A stretch of 32,000 nucleotides of DNA from Candidatus Methanoperedens sp. (GTDB lineage Archaea > Halobacteriota > Methanosarcinia > Methanosarcinales > Methanoperedenaceae): assembly GCA_027460535.1 (NCBI GenBank), contig JAPZAR010000031.1:91072-123071 (forward strand), read 5' to 3'. Position 1 is the stretch's first letter. Every line of letters begins with the position of its first letter. Shown here one piece after another: positions 3,630 through 32,000 of the stretch. Under the pieces are notes generated by a model. That model had not been told where the DNA came from. It saw nothing but the letters and a program-made list of their open reading frames with translations, and made no database searches. Both the position numbers and the translations under genes were made by a program.

Positions 3630-5286
<1,657 letters not shown>

Positions 5287-5382: not shown

Positions 5383-6261
<879 letters not shown>

Positions 6262-15960: not shown

Positions 15961-16099
15961 TCAATTGGCTAACTGCGCTCCCGTAGGCCCCTATTGTTCG
16001 TGTAAGCCCCAAGTAGGGGAGCTTTTTCTTCCTGTTCTTTTGTCTATTATCTGGCGCTCCGTTGGGTGTCCTGAGGAGCGGAGTAAAAATTAGTATATT

Positions 16100-16167
16100 T
16101 ATTACACACTAATTATAAAACCCTCGGCGCCGATATGTTCCCGAAGCATCTTCATTCTTCAAAACCA
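16100..16167 (-). repeat. Inverted copy of the tail/promoter (T/P) module of the 27.8-32 kb repeat family
   Basis: Minus strand reads GGTTTTGAagaatgaagatGCTTCGGGAACATATCGGCGCCgagggTTTTATAATTAGTGTG. Compare 29826-29878, GCTTCGGGAACATATCGGCGCagggagTTTAATATTTTTGAAGTGATA. Confidence 0.7.
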
Positions 16168-16196: not shown

Positions 16197-16352
16197 CCGC
16201 AGATAAAAGCGCCCAGAGTCACGGGCCTCCCGAGTCGCGCCTCGGGAGGGCGCACCCACGCATGCCGCAGGCATGCGTGTATACCAAGTCGAGAAGCGTA
16301 GTTTTCGGTCTGAGAACCCGCAGGGTTTCGGCATTGATGAACGCAGATTTAG
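16197..16352. repeat. Long member of the CGCAGAT element family carrying GC-rich perfect hairpins
   Basis: It starts ACCGCAGATAAA and ends GATGAACGCAGATTTA, the same two ends as the 6979-7012 element. The interior holds CCTCCCGAG/CTCGGGAGG (16226-16249) and CACGCATGCC/GGCATGCGTG (16257-16279), plus AACCC-GCA-GGGTT (16315-16327). Confidence 0.7.
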
Positions 16353-16856
16353 AGTCTCGTTCTTCATAGCATTTTTACTACGCCGAATATTTATAACTCT
16401 GTAATTATTAAACTCCAGGCGCGCCGTTCCCGGAGCAGCAATATTCCATTAGACCCGAACTCCCCAGGCCCACGTTGATGGGATGGGCTTTTTTCTTGCG
16501 GAGGGGAAGACGGAATCATTTCTGGCTGGGGGCGCGAGGAGAGGTATATGATCAGTTCGCTTGTTGTTCTGACGCGTGAGATTATGCTGGCTCTTAAAGT
16601 CGTAAATGTCGTGGAATGCAGGGATGAAACCTGTGATTTCGTCGGATATAGCAGGGAACCAAAAACAGAACCAAAAATATCTTGAAGACTGATATAATGT
16701 TGAGAAGAATTCACCGTTGAAACGTGGCATCGAAATGAAAAATATATTGCATAATTAGAATTGATTTCTTGAATCCAGAATTGGATTTCTGAGAACATCG
16801 GTAGACTCGTCCTAGGTTGACGCCGAACGCTAAGAGCATCCAGAGACGGCTGTGAA

Positions 16857-19800: not shown

Positions 19801-20099
19801 TTTATTTTCTCAATTAAGAACTGGTGAAAGGTTTCATTGTTGTGCAACAGGTCTGGTGAATAAATACGCAGCACTTTTTGCACAGCCTGTTCCTGTGCAT
19901 CCGCAGGAATATCAGGGTTTAACTTTGCAACAGCTTTGCGCAGGCGCTGCGTTAAAATGATCTGATCAAAACCTTCTCTCTCGGCAAACTCGGCGCCGGG
20001 GGCGATGGAAAGACCGTGGACATGTTGCCAGCCTAATGTCTTAAGTATTTCGATGGTAAAGGTTTCGATTTGTGATTCAGTGATTTTATTCGTCGTCAT
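16857..20099 (-). CDS. hsdR: Type I restriction enzyme R subunit HsdR
   Basis: 1080 aa. The N-terminal nuclease motif is RPDILLFINGIPIVLFELK. Helicase motifs are HTQGSGKS and VIADEAHRTQ. A conserved C-terminal domain is present. 14-nt overlap with the upstream rhuM-like gene. Confidence 0.95.
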   Translation of the reverse strand: MTTNKITESQIETFTIEILKTLGWQHVHGLSIAPGAEFAEREGFDQIILTQRLRKAVAKLNPDIPADAQEQAVQKVLRIYSPDLLHNNETFHQFLIEKIKIPYQQDGYERSFEVALIDFAHPSNNEFLVVNQYTIVENNQNKRPDILLFINGIPIVLFELKNAADETATIKKAFDQIQTYKATIPGLFAFNEVCIISDGMDCRAGSVSAGFSRYMTWKSADGKKEASRFIPQLEILIKGMLNPTTLLDLVCNFIIFEKSKKKDPKTGITQVETEKKLAAYHQYYAVNKAVENTIKAASTNGNRKGGVVWHTQGSGKSISMVFYSAKLVLSLNNPTVVVITDRNDLDDQLFDTFAASKQLLRQEPVQARDREHLKQLLNVASGGIVFTTIQKFLPEAGKAEFDRLSDRRNIVVIADEAHRTQYGFEAKLVDVKDKETKDVIGKRIAYGFAKYMRDALPNATYIGFTGTPIESTDVNTPAVFGQYVDIYDISQSVADGATVKIYYESRLAKVNLDEEGKRLIAEFDKELEEDEEITDKQRVRAKWAKLEAIVGNPERIKNLARDIVTHFELRTARFEGKGMVVAMSRRIAVDLYNEITKLRPQWHNDDLSKGAIKVVMTASSADGPVMQKHHTTKSQRRDLSDRMKDPEDPLRLVIVIDMWLTGFDVPCLHTLYVDKPMRDHSLMQAIARVNRVFRDKPGGLVVDYLGIATDLKKALSFYSNSGGKGDPAEGQEKAVAAMLEKLEIVRQLFFEESKSKEAILIAEPTAYYGKYPGTGFNYRRFFSASPQEKLSIILQAEEHIMGLENGKNRLIREVTMLSQAFALSVPDGQALAITDEVAFFQAVKARLVKFIGNGGGRSDLDIETTIKQIVDEALSSDQVIDIFDAAGIKKPEISILSQEFLQEIKGMKHQNLALELLKKILNDEIRTRSKTNLVKSKALLEMLETAIKKYNNGLLTTAEIIQFLVDEVAKKIKENDEREAHLGLSKEELAFYDALAENGSAVEVLGDDKLRIIAIEVAEKVKANATIDWTIRESARAKLMVLVKRTLNKYGYPPDMQQKAIDTVLKQAELLADYFVRGEA

Positions 20100-21105
20100 C
20101 TTTTTTTCCTGTGATGCGCTTTATCTCTTTGTCAAAATCGGAGATGTAATTTTTATCCTGAATTTTCTTGAATCTTTCATATTCTTTATTGACCAGAGCC
20201 AGAGCAACTTCATGACTGATTTGCCCGGCATTGGTGAGTATTTCGTATTCACTGAATTTCAGGAAGGCGTTCAGTTTTTCAATCCAATCTTTCATGTACA
20301 TTGGCGAATTGCGAACCGCCTGTAATTCCGCAAAATCAAGATACATGGTAACTATGCGGTTCAAATGATCAAGCTCAGGTTTGTCTAGATAGTTTTTTGC
20401 TATGGTAACATCACCTGGCATGATTTTACCGCCAGGTGCTTTTCGCCATGATGTCAATCCCATATTTGGCTTGTCGCTGCTGGCTCGTGTGGCTATAATT
20501 TCCGCGGCGGTCTGCCCTGTAATGGCAAAGTGCAGTTTGTTCTGTACCATCGCAAAGAACTGTTTTGTGTCCTGTGCTTTTGGCGAATAGTCAATAGAAG
20601 TGGCGTAAATATCAGTAATTTTCTGATACAACATCCGCTCACTGGAACGGATATCCCGGATTTCTTCGAGTAAGTCGTCAAAATATCGTGCGCTGAAACG
20701 GGAACCATATTTAAATCTGTCGCTGTCAATCGCAAAACCTTTATGAATATATTGCTGAAGAATTGAAATTGCCCATTGCCGGAACTGTGTGCCACGTTCT
20801 GAGTTAACCCTGTACCCCACCGCGATAATTGCTTCAAGCGAATAAAACTTTGTCTGATATTCCTTGCCATCTTCGGCAGTATGTGCAAAATTTGCACATA
20901 CTGAATCTTCCTCTAACTCGTTCTCAGAAAAGATGTTCTTCAGGTGCTTGGTGACAACACTACGATCTACATCGAACAGTTCCGCAATCCGCTTCTGGGG
21001 AAGCCAGATGTTTTCATTAGCGTATAGCACTTCAATGTTGATTTTTCCATCAGGTGTTTGATAAACGGTAATTTGATTGTCGGGTAATTTTTTATTTTTG
21101 GCCAT
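20086..21105 (-). CDS. RhuM-family protein (commonly embedded in type I R-M loci)
   Basis: 339 aa. The N-terminal region ITVYQTPDGKINIEVLYANENIWLPQKRIAELFDVDRSVVTKHLKNIF...AIIAVGYRVNSERGTQFRQWA matches my recollection of the RhuM family. Confidence 0.75.
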   Translation of the reverse strand: MAKNKKLPDNQITVYQTPDGKINIEVLYANENIWLPQKRIAELFDVDRSVVTKHLKNIFSENELEEDSVCANFAHTAEDGKEYQTKFYSLEAIIAVGYRVNSERGTQFRQWAISILQQYIHKGFAIDSDRFKYGSRFSARYFDDLLEEIRDIRSSERMLYQKITDIYATSIDYSPKAQDTKQFFAMVQNKLHFAITGQTAAEIIATRASSDKPNMGLTSWRKAPGGKIMPGDVTIAKNYLDKPELDHLNRIVTMYLDFAELQAVRNSPMYMKDWIEKLNAFLKFSEYEILTNAGQISHEVALALVNKEYERFKKIQDKNYISDFDKEIKRITGKKDDDE

Positions 21106-21322
21106 ATTTTACCTTTCGTACATCCACGGAACCTCTGTTTTTTTCAGTTATTCTGCCAGTGGCTTTTCGCAGGCGTTCCAGCAGTAGATCATCTTCAAAG
21201 GAGCCACTTTCCGGTTTCTCGCCAGCAGGGGCAATGTCGGGAGCGTAGAGATACTGGTAGCCCTGCTTTTCGAGGAGTTCGATTGCGAATTTTTCGATGA
21301 CGGATTCGGTAATATTGGTCAT
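21092..21322 (-). pseudogene. Relic N-terminus of a second, different hsdR allele
   Basis: MTNITESVIEKFAIELLEKQGYQYLYAPDIAPAGEKPESGSFEDDLLLERLRKATGRI aligns with the N-terminus of the intact HsdR (MTTNKITESQIETFTIEILKTLGWQHVHGLSIAPGAEFAEREGFDQIILTQRLRKAVAKL). Homology is lost after about residue 58 and a stop follows at codon 77. Confidence 0.6.
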
Positions 21323-21338
21323 TGTATTTGTTTCTTAT

Positions 21339-22160
21339 TCATTGGTTTAGTTTAAGTACAGAGTTTGCCAGCCTTTTTTCATTGCCTATCGGTGTTGTGT
21401 AATATCTCTGCTCAATACCATACAATATCTTTTTAAGATGGTCGTCTGTGCTAACAAGAAATGTGTCATCTTCTACTGGAACATCTTCACAATACGACCG
21501 TATATATTGAAAAATCTGCTGTTTGTTATCTTCTGTGAATTGGTTTAATATATCGATTGCCATTGCTATTCGCTTTCTATTGGCTGTTTTCACATTGTTG
21601 CAAGTAAATGTTTCATCAAGAGAAATGAAGTCTTGCTCCAGAAAAGCATCAACTTCGGCTTGAGTGGCTTCTCTGTAGAGTTCCTCAATACCTCTGAATA
21701 TTGATTTGACTCTTGCTATATTTTTAAAGTAAAGACTGTCAGCGTTTATATCGTAAACAGCATCAACAAAACTATTGAGGATTATAATAGGCTTATCAAT
21801 TTCAAGCGTTGGTTCGCTTGAAATGCGAAACCACTTTTTATAAATTAATTGAGTTGAAGACATCTTCAGAAAAAGAAAAAAATTGCCTTGTTTGCTACAT
21901 AAATAATTGATTTTAGAATATTGTCTTACAGTTATTTGATTATAAACTGTACTATCAAAGGTGCTTCCTATAAAGTTATTCTCATAACCAAGACTTAAAA
22001 AGTTATCTAATTTAAACCATTCACCATCTTCCAACTTATATGCTGGCGAATATGCTTGACTATCTGATAAGTCAGGCAAATCAAATACGCCTCTTTGAAC
22101 TGACATGACCTTCAAAAACTCTGCATTTCGACCTTTTATTTCTGCTAGTAAATAATTCAT
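21339..22160 (-). CDS. Hypothetical soluble protein, possibly KwaB-like (DUF4868-like)
   Basis: 273 aa from MNYLLAEIKG, with GGAAAGGT RBS 7 nt upstream. No motif is securely recognised. Its size, its position directly after a multi-TM protein, and the central region LYFKNIARVKSIFRGIEELYREATQAEVDAFL resemble my recollection of KwaB. Markedly AT-rich. Confidence 0.45.
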   Translation of the reverse strand: MNYLLAEIKGRNAEFLKVMSVQRGVFDLPDLSDSQAYSPAYKLEDGEWFKLDNFLSLGYENNFIGSTFDSTVYNQITVRQYSKINYLCSKQGNFFLFLKMSSTQLIYKKWFRISSEPTLEIDKPIIILNSFVDAVYDINADSLYFKNIARVKSIFRGIEELYREATQAEVDAFLEQDFISLDETFTCNNVKTANRKRIAMAIDILNQFTEDNKQQIFQYIRSYCEDVPVEDDTFLVSTDDHLKKILYGIEQRYYTTPIGNEKRLANSVLKLNQ

Positions 22161-22164
22161 AATA

Positions 22165-22219
22165 TTACCTTTCCATATCCACAAATGTATATTTACCTTT
22201 CCATATCCATAAATGTATA
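22165..22219. repeat. 27-nt tandem duplication (period 28, 1 mismatch) at the junction of the membrane and soluble genes
   Basis: TTACCTTTCCATATCCACAAATGTATA (22165-22191) against TTACCTTTCCATATCCATAAATGTATA (22193-22219). The second copy encodes the last codons and stop of the membrane protein. The first copy supplies the RBS region of the next gene. Confidence 0.85.
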
Positions 22220-22735
22220 ATTATTGATGCGTTTTAGATTGTCAAATGCTGCGCTTTTAGGCTCTTTTATTTGCTTTCGTGTAATTAATAACACTTTGAT
22301 ATTCTTATTGTTCACGAGATAATAAAAGTTGAATCCAAACAGGAAAAATATCGGATTAAAATAAGAAATTCTGGAATAAAAAATAAAAATACAAATTATC
22401 CCGAAAACATAAAGAAATACCTCAATGTTTGGAATGCTTAACGCAACAAAAAAATAACCTAAATAACTTGGTAAGAATGCGTCATTGGCTGGTTCAATAA
22501 CCGAGATGGAGCCTGCATCTATCGTGTCTGTGCCTAAAAAGTTAATAAGCCGCATACTCAGCCATGTAAATATTAAAACTACTACAAAATATAAAATATA
22601 AGAAATTATATTTGGTAAGCTTGAAAGGTATGGATACAAAGAGTTTATGACAATCCCTTCTTTAATAAGAAATACAATCAACGAGAGTAATAATGAATTT
22701 AATGTCAAACAAAATTTAAAAATGTGTTCTATCAT
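22193..22735 (-). CDS. Small multi-TM membrane protein, possibly KwaA-like
   Basis: 180 aa with 4-5 hydrophobic helices by eye (LLLSLIVFLI, IISYILYFVVVLIFTWL, YLGYFFVALSI, VFLYVFGIICIFIFY, IFFLFGFNFYYL). It starts 9 nt after the hsdS stop. Very AT-rich. Confidence 0.45.
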   Translation of the reverse strand: MIEHIFKFCLTLNSLLLSLIVFLIKEGIVINSLYPYLSSLPNIISYILYFVVVLIFTWLSMRLINFLGTDTIDAGSISVIEPANDAFLPSYLGYFFVALSIPNIEVFLYVFGIICIFIFYSRISYFNPIFFLFGFNFYYLVNNKNIKVLLITRKQIKEPKSAAFDNLKRINNYTFMDMER

Positions 22736-22744
22736 TCATCCTCC

Positions 22745-23944
22745 TCACATTTCAACCCTCACTTCCCCGCTCATCAACTTCGGCAGCAGCGTATCGCGCA
22801 GGCGGGTGAGGGTGCGGATTTGGATTTGATTGCTTTTTATTTTTTCAAAAGTTGGATTAATTATTTCATGCATTTCTTTTAATTTATTTTTTGGCGGAAC
22901 TAATACCGTTGCACTTGATAAATGATGTCTTTGGATATGTCCCATTGTGGTTGCTTTATCTTCTGCTATTCCTTGAAATTCAGGTAAGTGATATTTCACC
23001 CAGAAATAATAAAACCATTGTGGAAATTCAGTTGATGAAACTTTAAATAAATGTTGATTCAAAACTCCTTTACCTTCTGACCAAATCACAATATCTAAAC
23101 TACCTGACCATGAGAAAAGCATATCACCATTATGAACCAAATATTTTTCAGGAACATCATTAGTTGCAATATCCGAAGCATCTGTAATTCCTGTTCTCAA
23201 TTCTTTTATCTTGATAACAGGCAAACCAACTTCACCGACTTTTGCTGGAAATTTCTGACAAGCTAAACCATTTAAGAACTCTGCAATTTCATCCATACCT
23301 TTTTCTTCCCACCCCTCCTCCGCCTCTTCCACAAACCACTGCCTGAACAGCGTCTCTGCCAGTGCCTCCAGGGTTTTGTTCTGGCGGTGCAGCAGGTCTA
23401 TTTTGTTGTCGAGGCTGGAAAGCACAGAGGCGATGGATTGTTGTTCTAGGAGGGGGGGGACAGGGAGAAAAATTTCCTTTAAAGCAGAAAGATTTAATGT
23501 TGGCTGAACTGTATCGTTTGTGTGACTATAGATTTGATATTTTACTTGTTCAAAAGAGAAGCAGTATTTTATAAATGATTTATCATAAGCCTCAGAAATA
23601 TTGGAAACACTCACTGCTCTTGCAACATTCCAACCTTTGTAGACATTGGGGACAATTGCACATTCTCCAACACTTCCAACAACCGTTAATAAAAGTTCCC
23701 CACCCTTAAGTCTTGTTCGGGAATATTTTTTTTCAATCTCTTTATCTACCATCATCACATCAACTGAAAAAATTCTTCCGTCTTTTATGTTATTAACTCT
23801 AAGAACAGGGATACTATTGGTAACTTGATGGAAACCGGGTTGAACAATGCCATAAGACAGACCATTCGGGATAATTATTCTCTCAAAAGGCAAGCAGTCC
23901 CAATGTTTAGGAATTAATCCAACTTTACTGTCTTTGTATTCCAT
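22745..23944 (-). CDS. hsdS: Type I R-M specificity subunit HsdS
   Basis: 399 aa. Two variable target-recognition regions are separated by conserved helices (LPPLLEQQSIASVLSSLDNKIDLLHRQNKTLEALAETLF and RTLTRLRDTLLPKLMSGEVRV). Confidence 0.9.
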   Translation of the reverse strand: MEYKDSKVGLIPKHWDCLPFERIIIPNGLSYGIVQPGFHQVTNSIPVLRVNNIKDGRIFSVDVMMVDKEIEKKYSRTRLKGGELLLTVVGSVGECAIVPNVYKGWNVARAVSVSNISEAYDKSFIKYCFSFEQVKYQIYSHTNDTVQPTLNLSALKEIFLPVPPLLEQQSIASVLSSLDNKIDLLHRQNKTLEALAETLFRQWFVEEAEEGWEEKGMDEIAEFLNGLACQKFPAKVGEVGLPVIKIKELRTGITDASDIATNDVPEKYLVHNGDMLFSWSGSLDIVIWSEGKGVLNQHLFKVSSTEFPQWFYYFWVKYHLPEFQGIAEDKATTMGHIQRHHLSSATVLVPPKNKLKEMHEIINPTFEKIKSNQIQIRTLTRLRDTLLPKLMSGEVRVEM

Positions 23945-23945
23945 A

Positions 23946-25553
23946 TCATCCCACAGTTGTGTTATTGATATTGATTTTAGAAAGATTGTTTTGAATACGA
24001 TTGTTTAATTCGGTTTCTTCGATAATTTGTTTTTCCAACTCGGTTTTCAGAGAAATAAATCGTTCAACAAAATTGAAATCATCCTCATCATCTGGCAAGC
24101 CAATATACCTGCCGGGTGTCAGTACATAGTTCAAAGTCTTTACGTCATCCAGTGCCGCTGATTTACAGAATCCCTGCACATCCTTATATTCCCCTTCACC
24201 TGTGCGCCAGTTGTGATATGTGCGCCCGATCAATGCAATATCTTCATCAGATAACTCCCTGTTTTTGCGGTTAATCAAATGCCCCATATTACGGGTATCA
24301 ATAAACAATATTTTGCCCTTGCGTTGCTGTTTGTTACGGCTCAAAAACCACAAGCATGCGGGAATCTGGGTATTCAGGAATAGCTTGGTTGGAAGATTCA
24401 CAATGCAATCTATTAAATCATTTTCCACCATAGCCTTGCGTATATCGCCTTCGTTGTTGGTTTTGGTGGTCAGTGAACCCTTAGCCAAAACAAAGCCAGC
24501 CTGCCCCGTCGGCGCCAGATGATAGAGGAAATGCTGTATCCATGCATAGTTGGCGTTGGCTGGCGGCGGCGGCAGTTTTTGTCCTAATACGCTCCAGCGC
24601 GCATCATCACGGAGCATCTCGCCGCTCCAGTCACTGTCGTTGAATGGGGGATTTGCAATGATGTAATCGGCCTTCAGATCCTTATGCATATCGTTGAGAA
24701 AAGAGCCTTCATTGTTCCACTTTACATTGCTGCTGTCAATGCCGCGGATGGCAAGGTTCATTTTGGCCAGGCGCCAGGTGGTCTGGTTGCTCTCCTGCCC
24801 GTATATTGAGATGCGGTCTTTGGGATCAATGCTTAATTTCCTGCCATTATTTTTTTTATAATGATCCTGATGCGCCTCAATGAACTTTTCACTCTGCACA
24901 AACATACCGCCAGAACCGCAGCAGGGGTCAAAAACGCGCCCTTCATAAGGCTCAAGCATCTCAACCAGTAGCTTTACAACGCTACCCGGAGTGTAGAACT
25001 GTCCTCCCTTTTTGCCTTCTGCCAATGCAAATTCACCCAAGAAATATTCAAATACCTTGCCCAAGAGGTCTTTACCTTTTGCTTCCTTAGTACCCAATTC
25101 CGCGCTGCCTATAAGGTCAATCAAACCGCCAAGGCTCTGTTTGTCTAATTTCTCCTGTGCAAATACTCTGGGCAACACCCCTCTGAGGGAAGGGTTGTCC
25201 TTTTCGATTGCATCCATGGCTTCATCTACATCTTTGCCTATGGTGGGAAGCTTTGCTCGACCCTGCAACCAATTCCAGCGCGAAGAAGGGGGCACGTAAA
25301 AAACCTTTTCAGCAGTGTATTCATTCTTATCTTCGGGGTCAGCACCTTCATAGGCGCCTTTGCCTTCTTTCAGCTTTTGATGAAGTTCGAGAAAGGCGTC
25401 AGAAATATATTTCAGGAAGATCAAGCCCAAAACAATATGCTTGTATTCGGCTGCATCCATGTTCTTGCGCAACTTGTCGGCTGCCTTCCAGAGTTTCTTT
25501 TCTAAGGGTTCATCATTGTGGTTATTTTTTTCTTTATCGAACCGGGCCATCAA
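23946..25553 (-). CDS. hsdM: Type I R-M N6-adenine DNA methyltransferase HsdM
   Basis: 535 aa. The SAM motif is FDPCCGSGGMF and the catalytic motif is IANPPFN. The N-terminal HsdM domain reads LWKAADKLRKNMDAAEYKHIVLGLIFLKYISD. Confidence 0.95.
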   Translation of the reverse strand: MMARFDKEKNNHNDEPLEKKLWKAADKLRKNMDAAEYKHIVLGLIFLKYISDAFLELHQKLKEGKGAYEGADPEDKNEYTAEKVFYVPPSSRWNWLQGRAKLPTIGKDVDEAMDAIEKDNPSLRGVLPRVFAQEKLDKQSLGGLIDLIGSAELGTKEAKGKDLLGKVFEYFLGEFALAEGKKGGQFYTPGSVVKLLVEMLEPYEGRVFDPCCGSGGMFVQSEKFIEAHQDHYKKNNGRKLSIDPKDRISIYGQESNQTTWRLAKMNLAIRGIDSSNVKWNNEGSFLNDMHKDLKADYIIANPPFNDSDWSGEMLRDDARWSVLGQKLPPPPANANYAWIQHFLYHLAPTGQAGFVLAKGSLTTKTNNEGDIRKAMVENDLIDCIVNLPTKLFLNTQIPACLWFLSRNKQQRKGKILFIDTRNMGHLINRKNRELSDEDIALIGRTYHNWRTGEGEYKDVQGFCKSAALDDVKTLNYVLTPGRYIGLPDDEDDFNFVERFISLKTELEKQIIEETELNNRIQNNLSKININNTTVG

Positions 25554-26383: not shown

Positions 26384-27409
26384 TCAATCTTCACCTGATT
26401 CATATGTTTCTAAAAGTAAAACCGAAACTCCCGGGCCGCCTTCATCATTCCATTGCCCTTCGTGTCTATTCGGTGGAAGGTCATTATTTGAAAAAGAAAA
26501 ATCAACCAACTCCTGCAGGAAAGATCGTCTTGATGGTCGTATGCTAGGAGGCGTTGCATAGAAACACCCATCTATTTCAGATGGCGAAGCTCCTGTAGTT
26601 CTAGGTTGTTTTCCGTATTTAGAATTAGCTCTTCGAAATGCTTTTTCAGCGGAGCTTTTTAAAATGTCCCAAACGACTCTTGACCATCCATTTTCCTTAA
26701 TAGCTGTTTTGCTATCATCAAATGGATCACCGGAAAGGAGTTCCAATGAATGAACAATTTCCAATCCGAGGTCACAATGATCCATTATCGGATTGCTTGG
26801 AATGCAAGATCCGATAGGATAGGTGCATGGACTACCCAATATACCGGATTCCGGTCTTTCAGGAGGTCGGTCATCAATAAGTAGATATTGAGCGCCTCTA
26901 CGTGGAGCTGAGGGCTTAACGTGTCTTGTTTGACCATTTAATGAGCCAGAAGTGACATAGGTAAATGCAGGCCACGTTGAATAAAGTTTTAATTGGTCTT
27001 TGTCATTTCCACGAAGTTTATATGGCTGAACCGCAGACTTTTTTGCCTGATATAAAATTGCATTTCTAATTACATTTCCGTCAATATCAGAATGGACATG
27101 ACACCATAATAAATCGCCGAGTTCGCATGAGTTGCCTTTCATACCGCTAAAGTTGACTTTAGGTGTCTGATGACAATAAATTCCAGTAACAACAATCCGG
27201 ATTCCGAGTGAATCAAAAACATTGCGCCATTCATTTTCAATAATTTTTGTACCATTTAAAACCAAAGATGCAACGATATCTGGTTCTTCAGGCTCATTAC
27301 CTCTGATTCTACAATTATTCCATGCTTCAATCATGCTTACTGATATTGCATATCGAGCAGAAGTAACTAGATAAGGCTTAACCTTCATAACAGTAAGCAA
27401 AAATGACAT
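26384..27409 (-). CDS. Uncharacterised 341-aa protein with a PD-(D/E)xK-like motif
   Basis: Long ORF with GAAGGA RBS. I recognise no family. CELGDLLWCHVH...(about 20 aa)...ILYQAKK resembles an E..D...QxK restriction-endonuclease-fold core. No P-loop seen. The C-terminal 90 or so residues are P/S/R/G-rich. Confidence 0.6.
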   Translation of the reverse strand: MSFLLTVMKVKPYLVTSARYAISVSMIEAWNNCRIRGNEPEEPDIVASLVLNGTKIIENEWRNVFDSLGIRIVVTGIYCHQTPKVNFSGMKGNSCELGDLLWCHVHSDIDGNVIRNAILYQAKKSAVQPYKLRGNDKDQLKLYSTWPAFTYVTSGSLNGQTRHVKPSAPRRGAQYLLIDDRPPERPESGILGSPCTYPIGSCIPSNPIMDHCDLGLEIVHSLELLSGDPFDDSKTAIKENGWSRVVWDILKSSAEKAFRRANSKYGKQPRTTGASPSEIDGCFYATPPSIRPSRRSFLQELVDFSFSNNDLPPNRHEGQWNDEGGPGVSVLLLETYESGED

Positions 27410-27870
27410 GTTCCTTCATCTCTATTATTATATGCTCTTGCGTTCGCTTTTTGCACATTACTCGTTCATATCCGAACTCGATTCGAATATAGGTTCTTTT
27501 GCCTGAATACCAATTCCTTACTCATCAAATACCACCTCGCATTATATTTGTCTAAAGGATTTTTTATTCTGCTTAATTCTATATTACTCACATATGTATA
27601 AGAGTTCCTCATAATAGTGAATTTAAACCATAATACTAATGGTGGCCTTAGTCATGCAAATGCATGGCTTATCAGTGCACAGTTAATTATTTCAGGTGCA
27701 GGAACAGTAAGACAAAAGCCTTTATAACAAAGATCGCACACATGGTCGAAAAGGAAGCCATCAACCCATCCCAGGTCCTTCATCACCATACATTCCTATC
27801 TCGCAGTGGATAGCTTTCAACCGAGTTCTTGACCAGCTTGCCGTACTTCTTCTACCTTCTCATCTCCATG

Positions 27871-28076
27871 GTGAACAGGGTCTTCAATCAAAATAATCCC
27901 ATAGCCCTTCATATCCAGCAGCCCCATCACCCTATTCCTCTCGCCAGCCATCTTGAATCTATAGCAGGACTGTCGCCCAACCGCAGGCGGATTCGGGCCG
28001 AACGGGCGGCGGGGGTTTGATGTGGTTGCCCGGGGTGCATATCGGCACCAAGGGATTAATATTTTTTAAGTGATAC
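27871..28076 (+). repeat. Composite repeat unit 1 (body B 27871-27987, tail T1, promoter-like P 28031-28076)
   Basis: B runs GTGAACAGGGTCTTCAATC...CCCCATCACCCTATTCCTCTCGCCAGCCATCTTGAATCTATAGCAGGACTGTCGCCCAACCGCAGG. P reads CATATCGGCACCaagggaTTAATATTTTTTAAGTGATA and abuts the MNT gene region. Confidence 0.85.
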
Positions 28077-28136
28077 ATGTCTTCGACCCTTCCTGCACCC
28101 CAATTCTTAAATATTATTGTTCACATATATGAACAT

Positions 28137-28676
28137 ATGTTCAAAAAAATGAACGTATTCTCAAAGCCCTCCATACAAATAATACAATATCTTGGCAGGA
28201 GATATCGAGATGGCTACTATGTCCGCGAGATATCAAGAAATCTTGGTATCGGTCTGGGATCAGCGAGCCAGAGCCTGAGAACGCTCGAAGAAGCCGGACT
28301 CGTTTTAAAAGAGCACAAGGGCAGGCTGGTAATATACAGGGCGAACATGCAAAATTTCGTGCTCAGGGAGTTCAAGATACTTCTCACCCTTCTGGAAATA
28401 TATCCGTTCATCTTGCCCTTAAAAAAAATCTCTTCAAGGATCATCCTATTTGGAAGCTGTTCCGCAGGGGAGGACACAATAGACAGCGATATCGATATTT
28501 TCATTGAATCCGATAATAAAAGAGATGTTTCCATGCTTCATGACCGTTATTGGGAAGAGATCCCCAGGAAGATATCTCCCATTATTCTGGACGCCTCTGA
28601 ATTCAGGAACCTGGAGGCTAAAGACAGACCACTTTTCGAAAGGATTAACATTGGAAAAGTAATCCATGAAACATAA
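28137..28676 (+). CDS. Winged-helix + minimal nucleotidyltransferase (MNT) fusion, antitoxin-type partner of HEPN
   Basis: The wHTH is IQIIQYLGRRYRDGYYVREISRNLGIGLGSASQSLRTLEEAGLV. The NTase motif is ILFGSCSAGEDTIDSDIDIF. The start is set at M21 of the track ORF because the 28077 ATG lies too close to the TATA-like box (28057-28068). 28149 is also possible. Confidence 0.8.
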   Translation: MFKKMNVFSKPSIQIIQYLGRRYRDGYYVREISRNLGIGLGSASQSLRTLEEAGLVLKEHKGRLVIYRANMQNFVLREFKILLTLLEIYPFILPLKKISSRIILFGSCSAGEDTIDSDIDIFIESDNKRDVSMLHDRYWEEIPRKISPIILDASEFRNLEAKDRPLFERINIGKVIHET

Positions 28677-29101
28677 TGAGATATCAGTTTGAACAGTGCA
28701 TTGACAAAGGTAAGATAGTAAAAATCGAAATAGCCTCTGATCTAATATCTAAAGAGATCGATGAGGCAAAAAACGATCTTAATTCATGCGAGAGATCCAT
28801 ACAGGAAAGTAACTTCAAATGGGCGATAATCCAGGCATATTATTCCATGTTTCACTCATTTAGAGCCCTTATTTTCAGCAAAGGCTATAGAGAAAAAAGC
28901 CACACTTGCATAAAATACGCAATAGAATCTCTTTTTGTGGACACAGGCGCTCTGGATAACCAGCTCTTACAGGACTTTAGCTATGCCATGAAGGTCCGGG
29001 AAGGAGCGGATTATGGAAGTGTATATGGTAAAGACTCTGCGCTGGAATTGCAGATCTCAGCAGGTAGAATATACGAAGTAGCTAAAAGGTTAATTTCATA
29101 G
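28676..29101 (+). CDS. HEPN-domain protein (toxin-type partner of MNT)
   Basis: 141 aa with AIIQAYYSMFHSFRALIFSKGYREKSH...KVREGADYG, a HEPN helical pattern. TAATG overlap with the MNT gene. Its TAG stop lies inside the resumed repeat (CATAGCCC). Confidence 0.85.
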   Translation: MRYQFEQCIDKGKIVKIEIASDLISKEIDEAKNDLNSCERSIQESNFKWAIIQAYYSMFHSFRALIFSKGYREKSHTCIKYAIESLFVDTGALDNQLLQDFSYAMKVREGADYGSVYGKDSALELQISAGRIYEVAKRLIS

Positions 29102-29245
29102 CCCTTCATATCCAGTAGCCCCATCACCCCATCCCTCTCGCCAGCCATCTTGAATCTATAGCAGGACTGCCGCCCAATTGCACGCTCGAAGCCTGACCCG
29201 CGAGAGGTTGTGGAGGCGGTGGTGAGTGGGGTGCTTGAGGAAGAA
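29097..29245 (+). repeat. 5'-truncated repeat body (B 3' part) + tail variant T3 + degenerate P
   Basis: CATAGCCCTTCATATCCAGTAGCCCCATCACCCCATCCCTCTCGCCAGCCATCTTGAATCTATAGCAGGACTGCCGCCCAA is followed by GCTCGAAGCCTGAC...CGAGAGGTTGTGGAGGCGGTGG. The second part recurs at 29754-29803. Confidence 0.8.
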
Positions 29246-29321
29246 TCGCATAATGAGAATATCAAATGAAAATAAAGAAAACATATATACGATATTAGTA
29301 ATCTATTAAAATTGCATTAAT

Positions 29322-29540
29322 ATGGTAAAAGCGATAGTGAATATAAACGAAAGAGCCAACAGGGTATTAAATATAGTAAAAGCAAAACATGGTTTGAAAA
29401 CCAAATCTGAAGCTATTAATAAAGTGGTAAGTGAGTATGGAAAATCACTTCTTGAACCTGAACTGGATATTCTCAAAACTTGCAAAGAGAGATCCGAAAA
29501 AGATGCGGATGATCGAGAAAAAGATAAAACAGATTTGTGA
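29322..29540 (+). CDS. Archaeal antitoxin-like protein (DUF2683-like by recollection)
   Basis: 72 aa. MVKAIVNINERANRVLNIVKAKHGLKTKSEAINKVVSEYGKSLLEPEL fits a family usually found upstream of archaeal RelE-type toxins. Confidence 0.65.
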   Translation: MVKAIVNINERANRVLNIVKAKHGLKTKSEAINKVVSEYGKSLLEPELDILKTCKERSEKDADDREKDKTDL

Positions 29541-29694
29541 AAAACCTCTGCATTTCAAACCCTTAAGAGCGCCGATGCAGCATTTGCGAAGAGTCCATAT
29601 TGATAAAAGCTTTGTCTTAACCTATTCAGTCAATGAGAAAAATAAAGTTGTGGTAATAGAAGATTACGATCACCATGATAAAATCTATTTATAG
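29437..29694 (+). CDS. RelE/ParE-superfamily toxin
   Basis: 85 aa from MENHFLNLNWIFSKLAKRDPKK...HFKPLRAPMQHLRRVHIDKSFVLTYSVNEKNKVVVIEDYDHHDKIY, a typical archaeal RelE pattern. It overlaps the antitoxin ORF out of frame by 104 nt. Confidence 0.8.
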   Translation: MENHFLNLNWIFSKLAKRDPKKMRMIEKKIKQICEKPLHFKPLRAPMQHLRRVHIDKSFVLTYSVNEKNKVVVIEDYDHHDKIYL

Positions 29695-29749
29695 TAATTT
29701 TTATTTTACAGCACCGCATCGCCGCCAGACCAGCTCGTGCCCCTCTGCG

Positions 29750-29878
29750 ATAAGCTCGAAGCCGGACTCCTGCGCTCGCAGGCGGACAGCGAGAGGTTGA
29801 TGGAGGCGGTTGGAGGATGCTGGCGGGGCTTCGGGAACATATCGGCGCAGGGAGTTTAATATTTTTGAAGTGATATAA
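29750..29878 (+). repeat. Tail variant T3 + promoter-like P module
   Basis: GCTCGAAGCCGGAC...CGAGAGGTTGATGGAGGCGGTTGG is followed by GCTTCGGGAACATATCGGCGCagggagTTTAATATTTTTGAAGTGATATA. Confidence 0.8.
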
Positions 29879-29917
29879 GATGTGATAGAACACGGAGCGC
29901 ACTGATAACACAGAGTG

Positions 29918-29968
29918 GCATGGATTAAAATTATCCGTGCGTATCCGTTAAATCCGTGTCATCCGCGT
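29918..29968. repeat. ATCCG phased-decamer hairpin element
   Basis: GCATGGAT-taaaatt-ATCCGTGC forms an 8-bp stem including one G-T pair. It is followed by tandem ~10-nt units: ATCCGTGCGT, ATCCGTTAA, ATCCGTGTC, ATCCGCG. Confidence 0.6.
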
Positions 29969-30136
29969 TCCATTCTTCGAACCGCCTCCCCCCACAAAAA
30001 GAAGCAATAACCGTTTCCCCGCCCCCCATCGCCGCCGCCTGCCCCGCGCCATCGCCAGCACTATCCCTCATCGGATAGCTCTCAACCGGAGTTCGCTGTT
30101 GATTCTGAGTAAACGCGCTGTCCCATAGGCCGTGAG

Positions 30137-30189
30137 GCTGCTTCGGGAACATATCGGCGCCGCGAGATTAATATTTAAAGAGAGATAAA
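30137..30189 (+). repeat. Promoter-like P module (variant)
   Basis: GCTGCTTCGGGAACATATCGGCGCCgcgagaTTAATATTTAAAGAGAGATAAA. Confidence 0.75.
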
Positions 30190-30217
30190 TGTGCGGTGCG
30201 CAAAGGACGCGAAGCAT

Positions 30218-30387
30218 GCCCCATCACCTTATTCCTTTCGCCAGCCATCTTGAATCCATAGCAGTGCAGGACTGCCGCCCAACCGCAGGTGGATCCGAGC
30301 CGAATCTCGGTTTTGATGCGAGGTGGTTACCTGGGGCCGTATCGGCGCCGGAATTGAATATTTTCTAAGTGATATATATTTCTCCAA
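30218..30387 (+). repeat. 5'-truncated body B + tail T2 + P module
   Basis: CCCCATCACCTTATTCCTTTCGCCAGCC...GCCCAACCGCAGG is followed by TGGATCCGAGCCGAATCTCGGTTTTGATGCGAGGTGGTTACC and then GGGGCCGTATCGGCGCCggaatTGAATATTTTCTAAGTGATATATA. Confidence 0.85.
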
Positions 30388-30504
30388 GTGAACAGGGTCT
30401 TCATTCAAACTAGGGTCATAGCCCTGCATTTCCGGCAACCCCATCACCCTATTCCTCTTGCCCACCATCTTGAATCCATAGTAGGACTGTCGCCCAACCG
30501 CAGG
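30388..30504 (+). repeat. Full repeat body B (117 bp)
   Basis: GTGAACAGGGTCTTCATTCAAACTAGGGTCATAGCCC...GTCGCCCAACCGCAGG. Identical to 31884-32000. Confidence 0.9.
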
Positions 30505-30639
30505 GGTCTTCAATCAAAATTAGACCATACCCCTTCATATCCACCAGCCTATCACCCCATCCCTCTCACCGGCCATCTTGAATCTATAGCAGGACTGTCG
30601 CCCAACCGCAGGCGGATTCGGGCCGAACGGGCGGCGGGG
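30505..30639 (+). repeat. Repeat body B fused head-to-tail to the previous one, + tail T1
   Basis: The junction ...CCGCAGG|GGTCTTCAATC lacks tail, P and the GTGAACA start, and falls at the shared CAGG. The unit ends ...GCCCAACCGCAGGCGGATTCGGGCCGAACGGGCGGCGGGG. Confidence 0.85.
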
Positions 30640-30787
30640 TACGCATACATCAGATGGTTGATCTTGCTGAGGGCGAAGGCGGATTATCAGGATGGAGAAT
30701 GAGGGGAAGTTCTATCGGGATATTCTTATCGCAAAGATGAATTATGCGAAGACGAAGAGGCTCATGGAGCAAGATAATGTTTATATT

Positions 30788-31141
30788 TTACCTTATGATC
30801 CCCAACTGAAAACACAATCTATCGATTAGTTCTTCCTGTAAGCTCAAATCCTCGATTTTACCTAAATCCCTGATAAGGCGCCTTTTGTCAAGAGTCCTTA
30901 TTTGATAACATAGTGCAATGGACTCTTTCTCAAGCCCTCCGGTAGAGGCGGGGATCAAAACCTCATTCGGATAAATCCTCCTTTCTTGTTTTCTTGATGT
31001 TATCGGAATAACGTTCACGACCGGTAGTATCTGATTTATCTCTTCCTCGCTTATTACAATGACGGGACGTATCTTCCCCTGCTCAGAACCAATAACGGGA
31101 TCTAGATTTACCAAAAATATATGCCATTTATACTGCATCAT
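30788..31141 (-). CDS. mazF: MazF/PemK-family toxin endoribonuclease
   Basis: 117 aa with IFLVNLDPVIGSEQGKIRPVIVIS...VIPITSRKQERRIYPNEVLI...ALCYQIRTLDKRRL, the classic PemK/MazF pattern. Confidence 0.92.
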   Translation of the reverse strand: MMQYKWHIFLVNLDPVIGSEQGKIRPVIVISEEEINQILPVVNVIPITSRKQERRIYPNEVLIPASTGGLEKESIALCYQIRTLDKRRLIRDLGKIEDLSLQEELIDRLCFQLGIIR

Positions 31142-31376
31142 CTAATCCTTCTAGATCAATCGATTTGAAATCTTCAGATATTTCTTCCATATCTTCGAGG
31201 AACAGTTTGTCTTTTGCAGCGTTCTTCAATTCACGGATTCTTTCTCTGAAGCTATCCTGCTTTTTCTTCATAATCAAAATTACCTCAACTGTCTCATTTT
31301 CAGGGAATTCCCTAGGGACTTTGATCTTTATTTCATGGTTCTTTGGTATCTTGATAATCTGTTTGACTGCTTCCAT
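31128..31376 (-). CDS. Putative cognate antitoxin (MazE/AbrB-like by position)
   Basis: 82 aa with an acidic C-terminus. 14-nt overlap with mazF. I do not securely recognise the fold. Confidence 0.6.
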   Translation of the reverse strand: MEAVKQIIKIPKNHEIKIKVPREFPENETVEVILIMKKKQDSFRERIRELKNAAKDKLFLEDMEEISEDFKSIDLEGLDDAV

Positions 31377-31592
31377 GTCTTAGTCCTCTTGATTGGCATT
31401 TCAGGTGCTTTGTGGTATCTTAAACCGATGTCATAGTATTTGATACGCATTTTATACACTTAAACTTGGTTTTATAGGATATATAATCTGATGAGATACC
31501 GTGCTGAATCTACCTTGACACGAGTCTGGGACTTTTGCAAGGGAAGACTTTGGAGGAACTCTTTCTTTTCAGGATGTAATTTTGTAATGCGC

Positions 31593-31665
31593 GGTTTTTG
31601 ATGTTGTCCGGGGGCATATTGGCGCCGGAATTGAATATTTTGGAAGTTATATATGTTTCTCCACA
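31593..31665 (+). repeat. Partial tail + P module
   Basis: GGTTTTTGATGTTGTCCGGGGGCATATTGGCGCCggaatTGAATATTTTGGAAGTTATATATGTTTCTCCACA. Confidence 0.8.
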
Positions 31666-31883
31666 GTGAACAGGGTCTTCAATCAAAATAAGACATAGCC
31701 CATCACATCCAATACCCCATCACCCTATTCCTCTCGCCAGCCATCTTGAATCCATAGCAGTGCAGGACTGCCGCCCAACCGCAGGTGGATCCGAGCCGAA
31801 TCTCGGTTTTGATGCGAGGTGGTTACCTAGGGCCGTATCGGCGCCGGAATTGAATATTTTGTAAGTGATATATATTTCTCCAA
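31666..31883 (+). repeat. Complete 218-bp unit (B + T2 + P)
   Basis: GTGAACAGGGTCTTCAATCAAAATAAGACATAGCCC...CCGCAGG + TGGATCCGAGCCGAATCTCGG... + GTATCGGCGCCggaatTGAATATTTTGTAAGTGATATATATTTCTCCAA. The next unit follows directly. Confidence 0.9.
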
Positions 31884-32000
31884 GTGAACAGGGTCTTCAT
31901 TCAAACTAGGGTCATAGCCCTGCATTTCCGGCAACCCCATCACCCTATTCCTCTTGCCCACCATCTTGAATCCATAGTAGGACTGTCGCCCAACCGCAGG
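31884..32000 (+). repeat. Full repeat body B, ending exactly at the window edge (the array continues beyond)
   Basis: Identical to 30388-30504. Confidence 0.9.

Follow-up and report, generated by a model that had tools for sequence, protein, structure and literature searches.

The window, a 32,000-nucleotide stretch of Candidatus Methanoperedens DNA, ends in a repeat array (27781-32000). The initial annotation described seven or more copies of an element with three modules, B, T and P, filling the gaps between three toxin-antitoxin (TA) modules. Profile searches with nhmmer recovered seven B bodies and six P modules (E 1e-14 to 1e-37). All three TA modules are present; only two are intact, as relBE has a deletion of 123 bp that are still there in another contig, L028. 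The array extends past the window end (position 32000), and all related contigs break within it. The features are as follows (B and P copies by nhmmer).

27652..27963, minus strand: gene X pseudogene, codons 46 to ~125 (tblastn, DNA alignment, blastn)
27872-27987: B copy c1
27964..28076: T/X junction, T1 (T with an internal deletion) and P copy 1; non-coding, joined to X codon 46
28025-28080: P copy 1 (E 2e-15)
28100..28158, plus strand: putative MNT-HEPN promoter/operator, TATA-like TTAAATATTAT ~26 nt before the ATG at 28137 (sequence conservation)
28137..28676, plus strand: MNT antitoxin-type gene, wHTH and nucleotidyltransferase (Pfam NTP_transf_2, Polbeta, HTH_5)
28676..29101, plus strand: HEPN toxin-type gene (Pfam HEPN, E 1e-13)
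29090..29250, minus strand: c2 unit, X codons 46-63, then a decayed mid-X/T3 piece, 29181-29240 (nhmmer; X alignment)
29090-29182: B copy c2 (B profile 23-115, E 4e-25)
29322..29694, plus strand: relB/relE(parE)-type TA pair, inactivated by the 123-bp deletion (Pfam ParE_toxin; comparison with L028)
29700..29879, minus strand: c3, decayed X 3'-half remnant (29700-29790), T3 piece and P copy 2 (nhmmer; alignments)
29826-29879: P copy 2 (E 1.2e-15)
29990..30192, minus strand: c4, X 3'-half remnant with an internal deletion, then P copy 3 (alignment to intact X; nhmmer)
30137-30192: P copy 3 (E 2.7e-15)
30218..30386, minus strand: c5, B cut at its 5' side (X-derived part trimmed), T2 and P copy 4 (nhmmer)
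30218-30289: B copy c5 (B profile 51-117, E 6e-17)
30330-30378: P copy 4 (E 2.9e-15)
30389..30612, minus strand: c6 and c7, two B bodies fused head-to-tail at 30504/30505 (nhmmer)
30389-30504: B copy c6
30503-30612: B copy c7
30606..30686: 5' part of T (profile positions 21-127), severed by the MazEF insertion (nhmmer T profile, E 3.3e-10)
30691..30769, plus strand: 3'-end fragment of an Lhr-like helicase gene (...FYRDILIA..NYAKTKR...), 86% nucleotide identity to the gene end in contig L007
30788-31141, minus strand: mazF (Pfam PemK_toxin, E 1.5e-27)
31128-31376, minus strand: mazF antitoxin gene (codon-position identity to contig L017)
31584..32000, minus strand: 3' part of T and P copy 5, then two 218-bp tandem units (B c9, T2, P copy 6, B c10; nhmmer B/P/T)
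31607-31656: P copy 5
31667-31785: B copy c9
31826-31874: P copy 6
31885-32000: B copy c10

Repeat junctions and TA cassettes

The tandem units have a direct-repeat spacing of 218-219 bp, in keeping with the 218-bp unit first described, and in every complete unit the B start follows P at a distance of ~25 nt. The fusion of two B bodies at a shared CAGG (30504/30505) is also there. Contig L001, 100% identical over 30504-32000, retains at this point a 218-bp T-P-B-start segment that the window lacks, and the fusion appears to be a deletion at the CAGG microhomology. Together with the relBE deletion, this makes two deletions between the window and near-identical sibling contigs. The supposed three variants of the tail are internally deleted forms of a single ~225-nt T module: T1 and T2 are such forms, and T profile positions 147-223 match 28009-28082.

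The idea that genes were slotted in at defined module borders did not survive. MNT-HEPN occupies the place of the spacer and X codons 64-76, and MazEF was inserted inside T; L017 has its T split at the identical point. The HEPN/B junction was correctly located at 29097-29101; it consists of a 6-nt microhomology, TCATAG, and is identical in another genome (L007). B however is not the donor of the HEPN stop codon, because the homologous HEPN in contig L035 ends ...KLIS and a stop where no B is present. Each junction type has a different position and microhomology only (CAGG, TCATAG). The junctions look like one-off microhomology events with no common recombination site.

The mechanical ORF start of MNT is 28077, but its homologues begin MFK(K/T)MNVF. 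The putative operator contains overlapping GTTCA-N-TGAAC palindromes and a 20-nt tandem. In front of its MNT homologue, L035 has neither P nor T but does conserve this segment, which probably acts as the pair's own promoter. Compared with L007, MNT has 89% nucleotide identity (codon-position identity 0.93/0.96/0.79) and HEPN a codon-position identity of 0.99/0.99/0.87. In L034-L037, intact X genes alternate with MNT-HEPN pairs.

The relBE deletion, at 29464/29465, cost RelB its C-terminus and RelE its first 11 codons, the start among them. The pair is intact in L028, where the flanking alignment blocks are 100% and 99.9% identical to the window. Direct T3-like copies bracket relBE as reported (29181-29240 and 29754-29825 in the coordinates of the initial annotation).

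Against L017, mazF and its antitoxin gene have codon-position identities of 0.92/0.95/0.78 and 0.96/0.99/0.87. The TA genes are under purifying selection. The L007 gene that matches the neighbouring fragment has a C-terminus matching proteins named Lhr-like helicase. The same fragment accompanies MazEF in L017, neither array adjoins Lhr, and the fragment appears to be baggage carried with MazEF from another locus. Other Methanoperedens contigs have TA cassettes bracketed by duplicated Lhr 3' ends; in L020 a 516-bp HicBA cassette lies between 110-bp Lhr 3' repeats whose mutual identity is only 89%. A TA-like pair in L019 is bracketed by ~146-bp repeats.

Gene X and the repeats

Read on the minus strand, B corresponds to codons 46-76 of a ~130-aa protein family, here called gene X. 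This family falls into 233 clusters at 90% identity (consensus length ~130 aa), and all but two of those with a taxon name are labelled Ca. Methanoperedens; at 50% identity there are 305 representatives. No Pfam domain was found in gene X. The further 22-nt module, shared as claimed by 27808-27829 and 30073-30095, consists of the KNSVESYP codons from the middle of X. The pseudogene at 27652-27963 includes B copy c1 and the first of these modules. It carries 6-nt and 5-nt deletions, frameshifts and two stops, matches aa46-76 at 27877-27963 and aa79-107 at 27789-27875 (tblastn, E 1.9e-14), and is 74-76% identical to intact X genes (blastn). Identity of the B-T repeats to intact X is 74-82%, and the c1 flank, c3 and c4 align to intact X at the DNA level. 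The X assignment is weaker for c3 than for c4.

All element copies in the window, L001, L007, L017 and L018 begin at X aa46 (tblastn). At the DNA level, homology to intact X starts at nt ~136. The ~225-nt non-coding T-P segment joined there, at codon 46, is unrelated to the native 5' end of X. Because the copies in all five contigs share the codon-46 junction, they probably descend from a single T-P/X fusion. The element had been judged not to be protein-coding. This holds for the present copies, which are without codon periodicity and in several cases frameshifted, but B and the 22-nt module are minus-strand fragments of a protein gene, and the 5-nt indel cited against coding lies outside the X-derived part of B. 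Gene X is a protein family whose decayed copies explain both. The repeats are mostly decayed, duplicated pieces of gene X with a non-coding leader.

Intact X paralogs differ at the three codon positions by 131/92/469, and over codons 46-76 by 38/26/127. For the B copies the counts are 18/20/23 (p=0.73), and c7, c9 and L017b carry 1-nt indels. The intact paralogs are under strong purifying selection; the B copies show none. Cross-genome identity is 0.85-0.86 for B, 0.82 for T, 0.82 for the Lhr fragment, and 0.84 and 0.92 for P, against 0.78-0.87 at third codon positions, a neutral-rate calibration that consists of two pairwise genome comparisons of short segments only. On this scale B and T diverge at about the synonymous-site rate, and the conservation of P seems at best marginally above neutral. 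P may nevertheless have a function, because in one of the two comparisons no other module is as well conserved (0.92), its sequence is BRE/TATA-like, and it is present without X at 16.1-16.4 kb, in further P-like copies outside the flagged region (16096-16149 and 16388-16439, minus strand).

Proposed origin and competing explanations

The region is probably an eroded remnant of a gene X/TA array in a deletion-prone island of the Ca. Methanoperedens chromosome. It represents neither a new integron-like system nor a new system of small RNAs. In the ancestral layout an X paralog would have stood divergently beside an MNT-HEPN pair, as is still intact in L035. A single illegitimate event may then have swapped the first 45 X codons for T-P. 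Unequal homologous recombination or replication slippage between direct repeats would have multiplied the resulting P-T-X' unit into the 218-bp tandem units, and microhomology deletions would have trimmed it at CAGG (B-B fusion) and TCATAG (HEPN/B). TA cassettes with their own flanks may have interrupted the unit, MazEF with its Lhr 3' piece inside T and relBE between mid-X/T3 pieces.

Tandem small-RNA genes, in which P drives a ~180-nt B-T or antisense regulatory transcript acting for example on TA modules or X paralogs, would account for the placing of P ~25 nt upstream of B in complete units, and plus-strand B-T transcripts would be antisense to X mRNAs (74-82% identity). This reading, offered by the initial annotation, is very improbable. 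Whichever strand is folded, and whether as RNA or DNA, the units score z 0.0 to +0.7. When copies from several genomes are folded to a consensus, the energies are -1.3 and -4.3 kcal/mol and covariation is practically absent; no Rfam match was found even at E<=1. The units diverge near-neutrally, with many indels, and are cut at arbitrary points. An extremely improbable explanation is that B-T is a non-canonical attC used by a tyrosine recombinase encoded past the window end. GCCCAAC at the end of B resembles an R'' box, and TA cassettes that have their own promoters and point either way recall sedentary chromosomal integrons. The likeness to the Vibrio superintegron (~120-bp VCR/attC), with many small genes that are TA modules and ~120-220-bp direct repeats between them, is however superficial. 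The window repeats are protein-gene fragments plus a leader and form no attC-like hairpin (ssDNA fold z 0.0 and +0.5), no inverted repeats or complementary R' partner were found within the units, and cassette boundaries are not fixed but fall at varying unit positions with microhomology junctions. No recombinase was found in the 32-kb window, nor IntI or attI. A survey of archaeal integrons makes no mention of Methanoperedens, Methanosarcina-type or Halobacteria-type lineages (PMC9668308). What stands of the integron analogy is a variable TA hotspot. The pdif (XerC/D-dif) modules of Acinetobacter plasmids are small TA or accessory modules bounded by short repeated sites in varied contexts. The dif-like 28-bp inverted-arm site is absent from the window in inverted-repeat searches, and the repeats of the array are long and direct and stem from a gene.

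It is quite improbable that T-P is the end of an unrecognised mobile element, or a mobile promoter, inserted in X at codon 45/46, with P as an outward or bidirectional promoter. The break in homology at codon 46 is sharp, P is BRE/TATA-like, T-P-like copies without X sit downstream of hsdR, inverted relative to the array, and in L018 P and T lie upstream of an intact 85-aa X' ORF. T-P however showed neither terminal inverted repeats nor target-site duplications, the copies on the two sides of the island share only a 58-nt core, and the many X fragments yielded no reciprocal junction of X(1-45) with the element. T-P has no associated transposase or integrase and gave no matches in ~120 kb of other Methanoperedens loci, and MNT-HEPN does not need P. 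An unlikely alternative is a homology-driven platform in which X-derived and T-P repeats (elsewhere duplicated Lhr 3' ends) serve as portable homology. A TA cassette with one repeat would loop out via flanking direct repeats and re-enter Campbell-style at a similar repeat, so that arrays would need no dedicated integrase to expand and to swap cassettes. Direct repeats do bracket all cassettes (B for MNT-HEPN and MazEF, T3 for relBE), as they do in L020 and L019, and MazEF travels with its Lhr fragment in two arrays away from Lhr. P-MNT-HEPN-B' adjoins Lhr in L007 but the X pseudogene and defence island in the window. Any interspersed duplication, however, automatically leaves direct repeats around genes, and few independent events are needed because the junctions shared across genomes are identical by descent. 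Neither circular intermediates nor empty/occupied site pairs were seen, the polymorphisms observed are plain deletions, and the repeats drift neutrally. The Lhr duplicates also recall the att-type 3'-end duplications of tRNA or protein genes by archaeal integrative elements. Here, though, the inserts are 0.5-1 kb TA pairs without an integrase, the window fragment is solitary and distant from any Lhr gene, and the main repeats come from X rather than from an integration target of proven repeated use.

The favoured reading, an eroding gene X/TA array, resembles other eroding genomic or defence islands. The region is a chromosomal variable region adjoining a type I R-M/Kiwa/HNH island, several TA modules lie among neutrally evolving gene fragments, deletions differ between near-identical strains, and assemblies break inside it. 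Unlike such islands, it has one fused unit (P-T-X') amplified into tandem and dispersed copies, and the parent X is a large lineage-specific multicopy family alternating with MNT-HEPN in other genomes. This pairing, and the same TA cassettes with the same flanking repeat pieces adjoining different neighbours in L007, L017 and L035, could point to organised exchange rather than decay. In the eroding array, X fragments would drift as junk while the TA modules persist, because these are addictive or selected. Apart from the homology they offer for continued rearrangement, the repeats seem to have no role.

Layout of the array and its surroundings

The window comes from the chromosome of a Candidatus Methanoperedens-like archaeon; an S-layer/amt/nifHDK region is followed there by a defence island and then by the array. 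Its closest public matches are Methanoperedens MAG contigs. The island carries hsdM-hsdS-KwaA-KwaB-RhuM-hsdR, an HNH gene and a 341-aa gene without an assigned family:

16857-25553: type I restriction-modification (R-M) operon
20086-21105, minus strand: RhuM-family gene
21339-22184, minus strand: KwaB
22193-22735, minus strand: KwaA
25664-26248, minus strand: HNH-nuclease gene, with weak PADLOC matches to PtuB and PDC-M01B
26384-27409, minus strand: 341-aa gene, with no match in Pfam or PADLOC

The Kiwa-like KwaA-KwaB pair and the RhuM gene lie between hsdS and hsdR, and 20086-22735 is thus one defence system nested in another. The HNH gene and the adjoining 341-aa gene, which separate the R-M operon from the array and are kept in the related contigs L028 and L029, may be an undescribed defence pair.

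The repeat family described in the initial annotation is real. Mechanical repeat finding and profile searches recovered seven copies of the body, B, and six of the promoter-like module, P, with a unit spacing of 218-219 bp. The array is restricted to the right end of the window and includes three TA pairs recognized by Pfam: MNT-HEPN, a RelB/ParE-RelE-type pair (relBE) and MazEF. It extends past the window end, and the related contigs, as well as all contigs with the exact MazF or HEPN protein, stop within the array. Scans of the reference-genome and the metagenome collections for the B core gave one to two real loci per collection, the rest being chance 20-mer matches; a scan of viral contigs was empty.

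Gene X as the source of the repeat body

In the related contig L018, the B sequence opens an intact 85-aa ORF, with the tail module T and then P upstream on the same strand. The ORF belongs to a protein family, X, with a typical length of ~130 aa, which forms 233 clusters at 90% identity and has 305 representatives at 50%. Among the clusters with a taxon name, all except two bear the label Ca. Methanoperedens. The family has no domain match in Pfam or NCBIfam. The AlphaFold model (pLDDT 70) is alpha/beta, and its best Foldseek matches in the PDB, the DNA-damage-recognition domains of XPB and MutS, are not significant (E 0.09-0.4). In single relatives a fusion to C2H2 zinc fingers or an SRAP domain is seen. 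Intact copies of X in related contigs include:

L021 7001-7399: intact gene X
L023 7001-7390: intact gene X
L026 6956-7354: intact gene X
L035 1604-1987: intact gene X

Read on the minus strand, B is codons 46-76 of X. tblastn detects the homology, at E values of 1e-5 to 1e-14 in the window copies and of 9e-38 in L018, and blastn of the repeat against intact X gives 72-82% identity over 76-242 nt (E 3e-7 to 1e-67). At the start of the array, 27652-27963 is a frameshifted X pseudogene spanning codons 46 to ~125. By alignment to intact X, copy c4 (copies are numbered along the window) is a remnant of the 3' half of the gene, as is, with a weaker assignment, copy c3. A 22-nt further module noted initially is indeed shared between copies; its identity is the reverse complement of the mid-X codons for KNSVESYP.

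The intact X paralogs differ at 131, 92 and 469 sites in codon positions 1, 2 and 3 (38, 26 and 127 in codons 46-76 alone), a pattern that indicates strong purifying selection. The B copies show 18, 20 and 23 changes at the same positions (p=0.73), hence no codon periodicity, and several are frameshifted by 1-nt indels or contain stops. X is thus a real gene, of which the B copies are dead fragments. The initial description of the element as not protein-coding holds for the present copies but not for their origin. A minus-strand peptide in B, MAGERNRVMGLLDMKGY..., is found again across genomes; B was considered as a functional small ORF on this basis, and was retained as a pseudogene fragment given the lack of codon periodicity, the frameshifts and the absence of a Pfam match. 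The T3 form of the tail, which has an HsdS-helix-like plus-strand reading (...LCDKLEAGLLRSQADSERLMEAV), had suggested a decayed HsdS C-terminus; it is actually the reverse complement of mid-X, and tblastn with the window's HsdS was uninformative on this idea.

X is multicopy in Methanoperedens and often fragmented, with breakpoints elsewhere at many different positions, and also occurs alone in varied neighbourhoods.

Junctions, toxin-antitoxin pairs and drift

In the window and in L001, L007, L017 and L018 alike, homology to X always starts at residue 46, with one and the same T sequence in front of it. The complete T-P segment is ~225 nt long (L018 5745-5977); T1 and T2 of the window lack internal parts of T. 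An origin of T-P from the native 5' coding region or promoter of X was rejected because homology is absent upstream of nt 136. The coding region of the Lhr helicase was rejected at the sensitivity of the T profile, which found no match in intact Lhr genes.

P is promoter-like by its resemblance to a BRE/TATA element only. It is not needed as the promoter of MNT-HEPN; a TATA-like box and a palindromic operator specific to that operon lie ~26 nt upstream of its start codon (ATG at 28137), and both are kept in L035, where P is absent. Overlapping palindromes, GTTCACATATATGAACATATGTTCAAAAAAATGAAC, at 28119-28154 span the start codon of MNT and are likewise kept in L035; they are likely to be the operator through which the HTH-MNT antitoxin regulates its own leaderless transcript. 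Beside P modules in several genomes lie the 7-mers ATCCGCG, ATCTGCG and ATCCGTG with the complement CACGGAT at ~9-11-nt intervals, which could be protein-binding iterons:

Window 29930-29975: 7-mer cluster
Window ~16200-16350: 7-mer cluster
L007 ~7100-7170: 7-mer cluster
L017 ~4575-4645: 7-mer cluster
L018 ~5990-6080: 7-mer cluster

The unit junctions are each unique and differ one from another. At 30504/30505 two B bodies are fused by a deletion, with CAGG as the microhomology. The HEPN-B junction is a TCATAG microhomology that is common to the window and L007, and is therefore identical by descent. The HEPN stop codon, previously assigned to B, is native, because the homologous HEPN of L035 ends ...KLIS* in the absence of any B. 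MazEF lies within T, between T profile positions 127 and 142, where it was inserted together with a 3'-end fragment of an Lhr-like helicase gene; T is split at the identical point in the window and L017. MNT-HEPN takes the place of the spacer and X codons 64-76, and relBE sits between mid-X/T3 pieces. With junctions that differ and MazEF inside T, the proposal that genes are slotted in at defined module borders does not hold; the boundaries of the three pairs fall each at a different place in the unit.

The pairs have the characters of type II/VII TA modules: adjoining small toxin and antitoxin genes, Pfam family domains and, for MNT-HEPN and MazEF, purifying selection. All three annotated pairs are present, but relBE is inactivated by a 123-bp deletion at 29464/29465 that removed the RelB C-terminus and the RelE start. 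The missing segment is found in L028 (6790-6912), a contig from a public metagenome in which the pair is intact and the flanking blocks are 100% and 99.9% identical. L001, which matches window 30504-32000 at 100% identity, still carries at the B-B junction a 218-bp segment that the window lacks (T-P and the start of B; L001 1500-1717). The window and L001 thus differ by a population-level copy-number polymorphism of the unit. The T variant in this extra segment contains a long imperfect hairpin, GAGAGCACAGAG...CTCTGTGTCCTCTGTGCC, also seen in L017 at ~4830-4885 and 7420-7475.

Rates of change were compared in two genome pairs.

Identity between genomes, by component of the array
B: 0.85-0.86
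T: 0.82
Lhr fragment: 0.82
P: 0.84-0.92
TA genes, third codon positions: 0.78-0.87
TA genes, first and second codon positions: 0.92-0.99 (MNT-HEPN, MazEF)

The identities of B and T are close to that of third codon positions, and therefore B and T drift at a roughly neutral rate and MNT-HEPN and MazEF are maintained. With homology to an intact family, lost coding selection and a near-neutral rate, the repeats have the sequence hallmarks of pseudogene or segmental-duplication relics.

Related arrays show similar arrangements. In L035 an X 3' fragment is followed by HEPN-MNT, a divergent full-length X, a second HEPN-MNT and X' (a truncated X); the HEPN-MNT adjoining the 3' fragment is 83-86% identical to the window pair. 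The L037 array resembles that of L035, and intact or truncated X alternates with MNT-HEPN in other Methanoperedens contigs. Duplicated Lhr 3' ends around TA cassettes are a separate, recurrent arrangement: in L020 (9379-10114) HicBA comes after an intact Lhr, and beyond HicBA lies a 110-bp copy of the Lhr end at 89% identity, and in L019 (8819-10080) ~146-bp repeats surround another TA-like pair. Lhr 3' fragments also occur singly in further contigs (e.g. L018 341-478). P-MNT-HEPN-B' lies beside Lhr in L007 and beside the X pseudogene in the window, and MazEF carries the Lhr fragment in two arrays that do not adjoin Lhr. The same cassettes thus have different neighbours, and therefore pieces of the array have moved between loci. 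Database matches to the Lhr C-terminus are mostly 'partial' proteins, many on short contigs, which suggests that assemblies often break near the Lhr-like helicase gene.

Origin of the array and its meaning

The array is probably the product of erosion of an X/TA array. One fused unit, P-T-X' (X' here being X without its first 45 codons), would have been amplified by unequal recombination or slippage and then trimmed by microhomology deletions. TA cassettes would interrupt the trimmed array, the TA genes persisting and the X fragments drifting.

The readings proposed initially, an integron analogue, small-RNA genes or mobile promoters, are less likely. An attC site, an imperfect R''-L''...L'-R' palindrome that folds as an ssDNA hairpin, was not found; there are no inverted repeats within units, and the GCCCAAC in the unit is unaccompanied by a complementary GTTRRRY partner. 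Nor was there a fixed cassette boundary (G|TT in R'), since the boundaries vary among the three TA pairs. No recombinase (IntI tyrosine type with attI and Pc) was found among the scanned ORFs of 1-27400, but the array runs off the window end and one may lie beyond it. An archaeal integron survey makes no mention of Methanoperedens, Methanosarcina-type or Halobacteria-type lineages (PMC9668308). Neither arrays of this kind nor family X were described in the literature searched. Folded whole, as RNA or ssDNA and on either strand, the units were no stabler than shuffles (z 0.0 to +0.7; RNA 0.26 to 0.67, ssDNA 0.01 and 0.53). Across eight copies drawn from five contigs, RNAalifold consensus energies were -1.3 and -4.3 kcal/mol, compensatory pairs numbered 0-1 and covariation was not meaningful; Rfam gave no match even at E<=1. 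These results speak against tandem small-RNA genes and sites of attC type, and structured RNA and attC-like hairpins were rejected on them. As for a mobile-element end or mobile promoter, no MITE- or IS-type inverted repeats are present at the unit ends. P-like, partly T-like copies do occur at 16096-16149 and 16388-16439 (minus strand), just downstream of hsdR and inverted relative to the array, without an X fragment and with no obvious gene downstream. Their match to the array copies is limited to a ~58-nt core, and the idea that long inverted T-P repeats enclose the defence island was rejected for this reason.

The main rival to an eroded X/TA array is that the repeats serve as portable homology for Campbell-type cassette exchange, which is unlikely. 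The flanking-repeat pattern and the 'baggage' carried by cassettes fit such exchange, but the same pattern is expected from any interspersed duplication, and the polymorphisms seen are deletions only. It is similarly doubtful that X paralogs, the repeats derived from them and duplicated Lhr 3' ends form a Methanoperedens-specific, integrase-independent platform, with TA and defence cassettes looping out and re-inserting between X copies; in a variant of this proposal X would be a functional third partner of MNT-HEPN. If exchange does take place, it would be cassette exchange driven by gene-derived homology with no dedicated recombinase.

The main value of this account is corrective: what looks like a new integron-like or small-RNA array is built of duplicated pseudogene fragments, and such a case can be settled by an opposite-strand reading and one intact homologue elsewhere. 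The array and the Lhr neighbourhood help account for the breaks in assemblies, which fall within arrays and on the downstream side of the Lhr helicase gene. Ongoing deletion at the population level is documented in TA-rich regions. X itself is a large, uncharacterised, lineage-specific multicopy family, whose copies and fragments mark the variable TA-rich regions of Methanoperedens.
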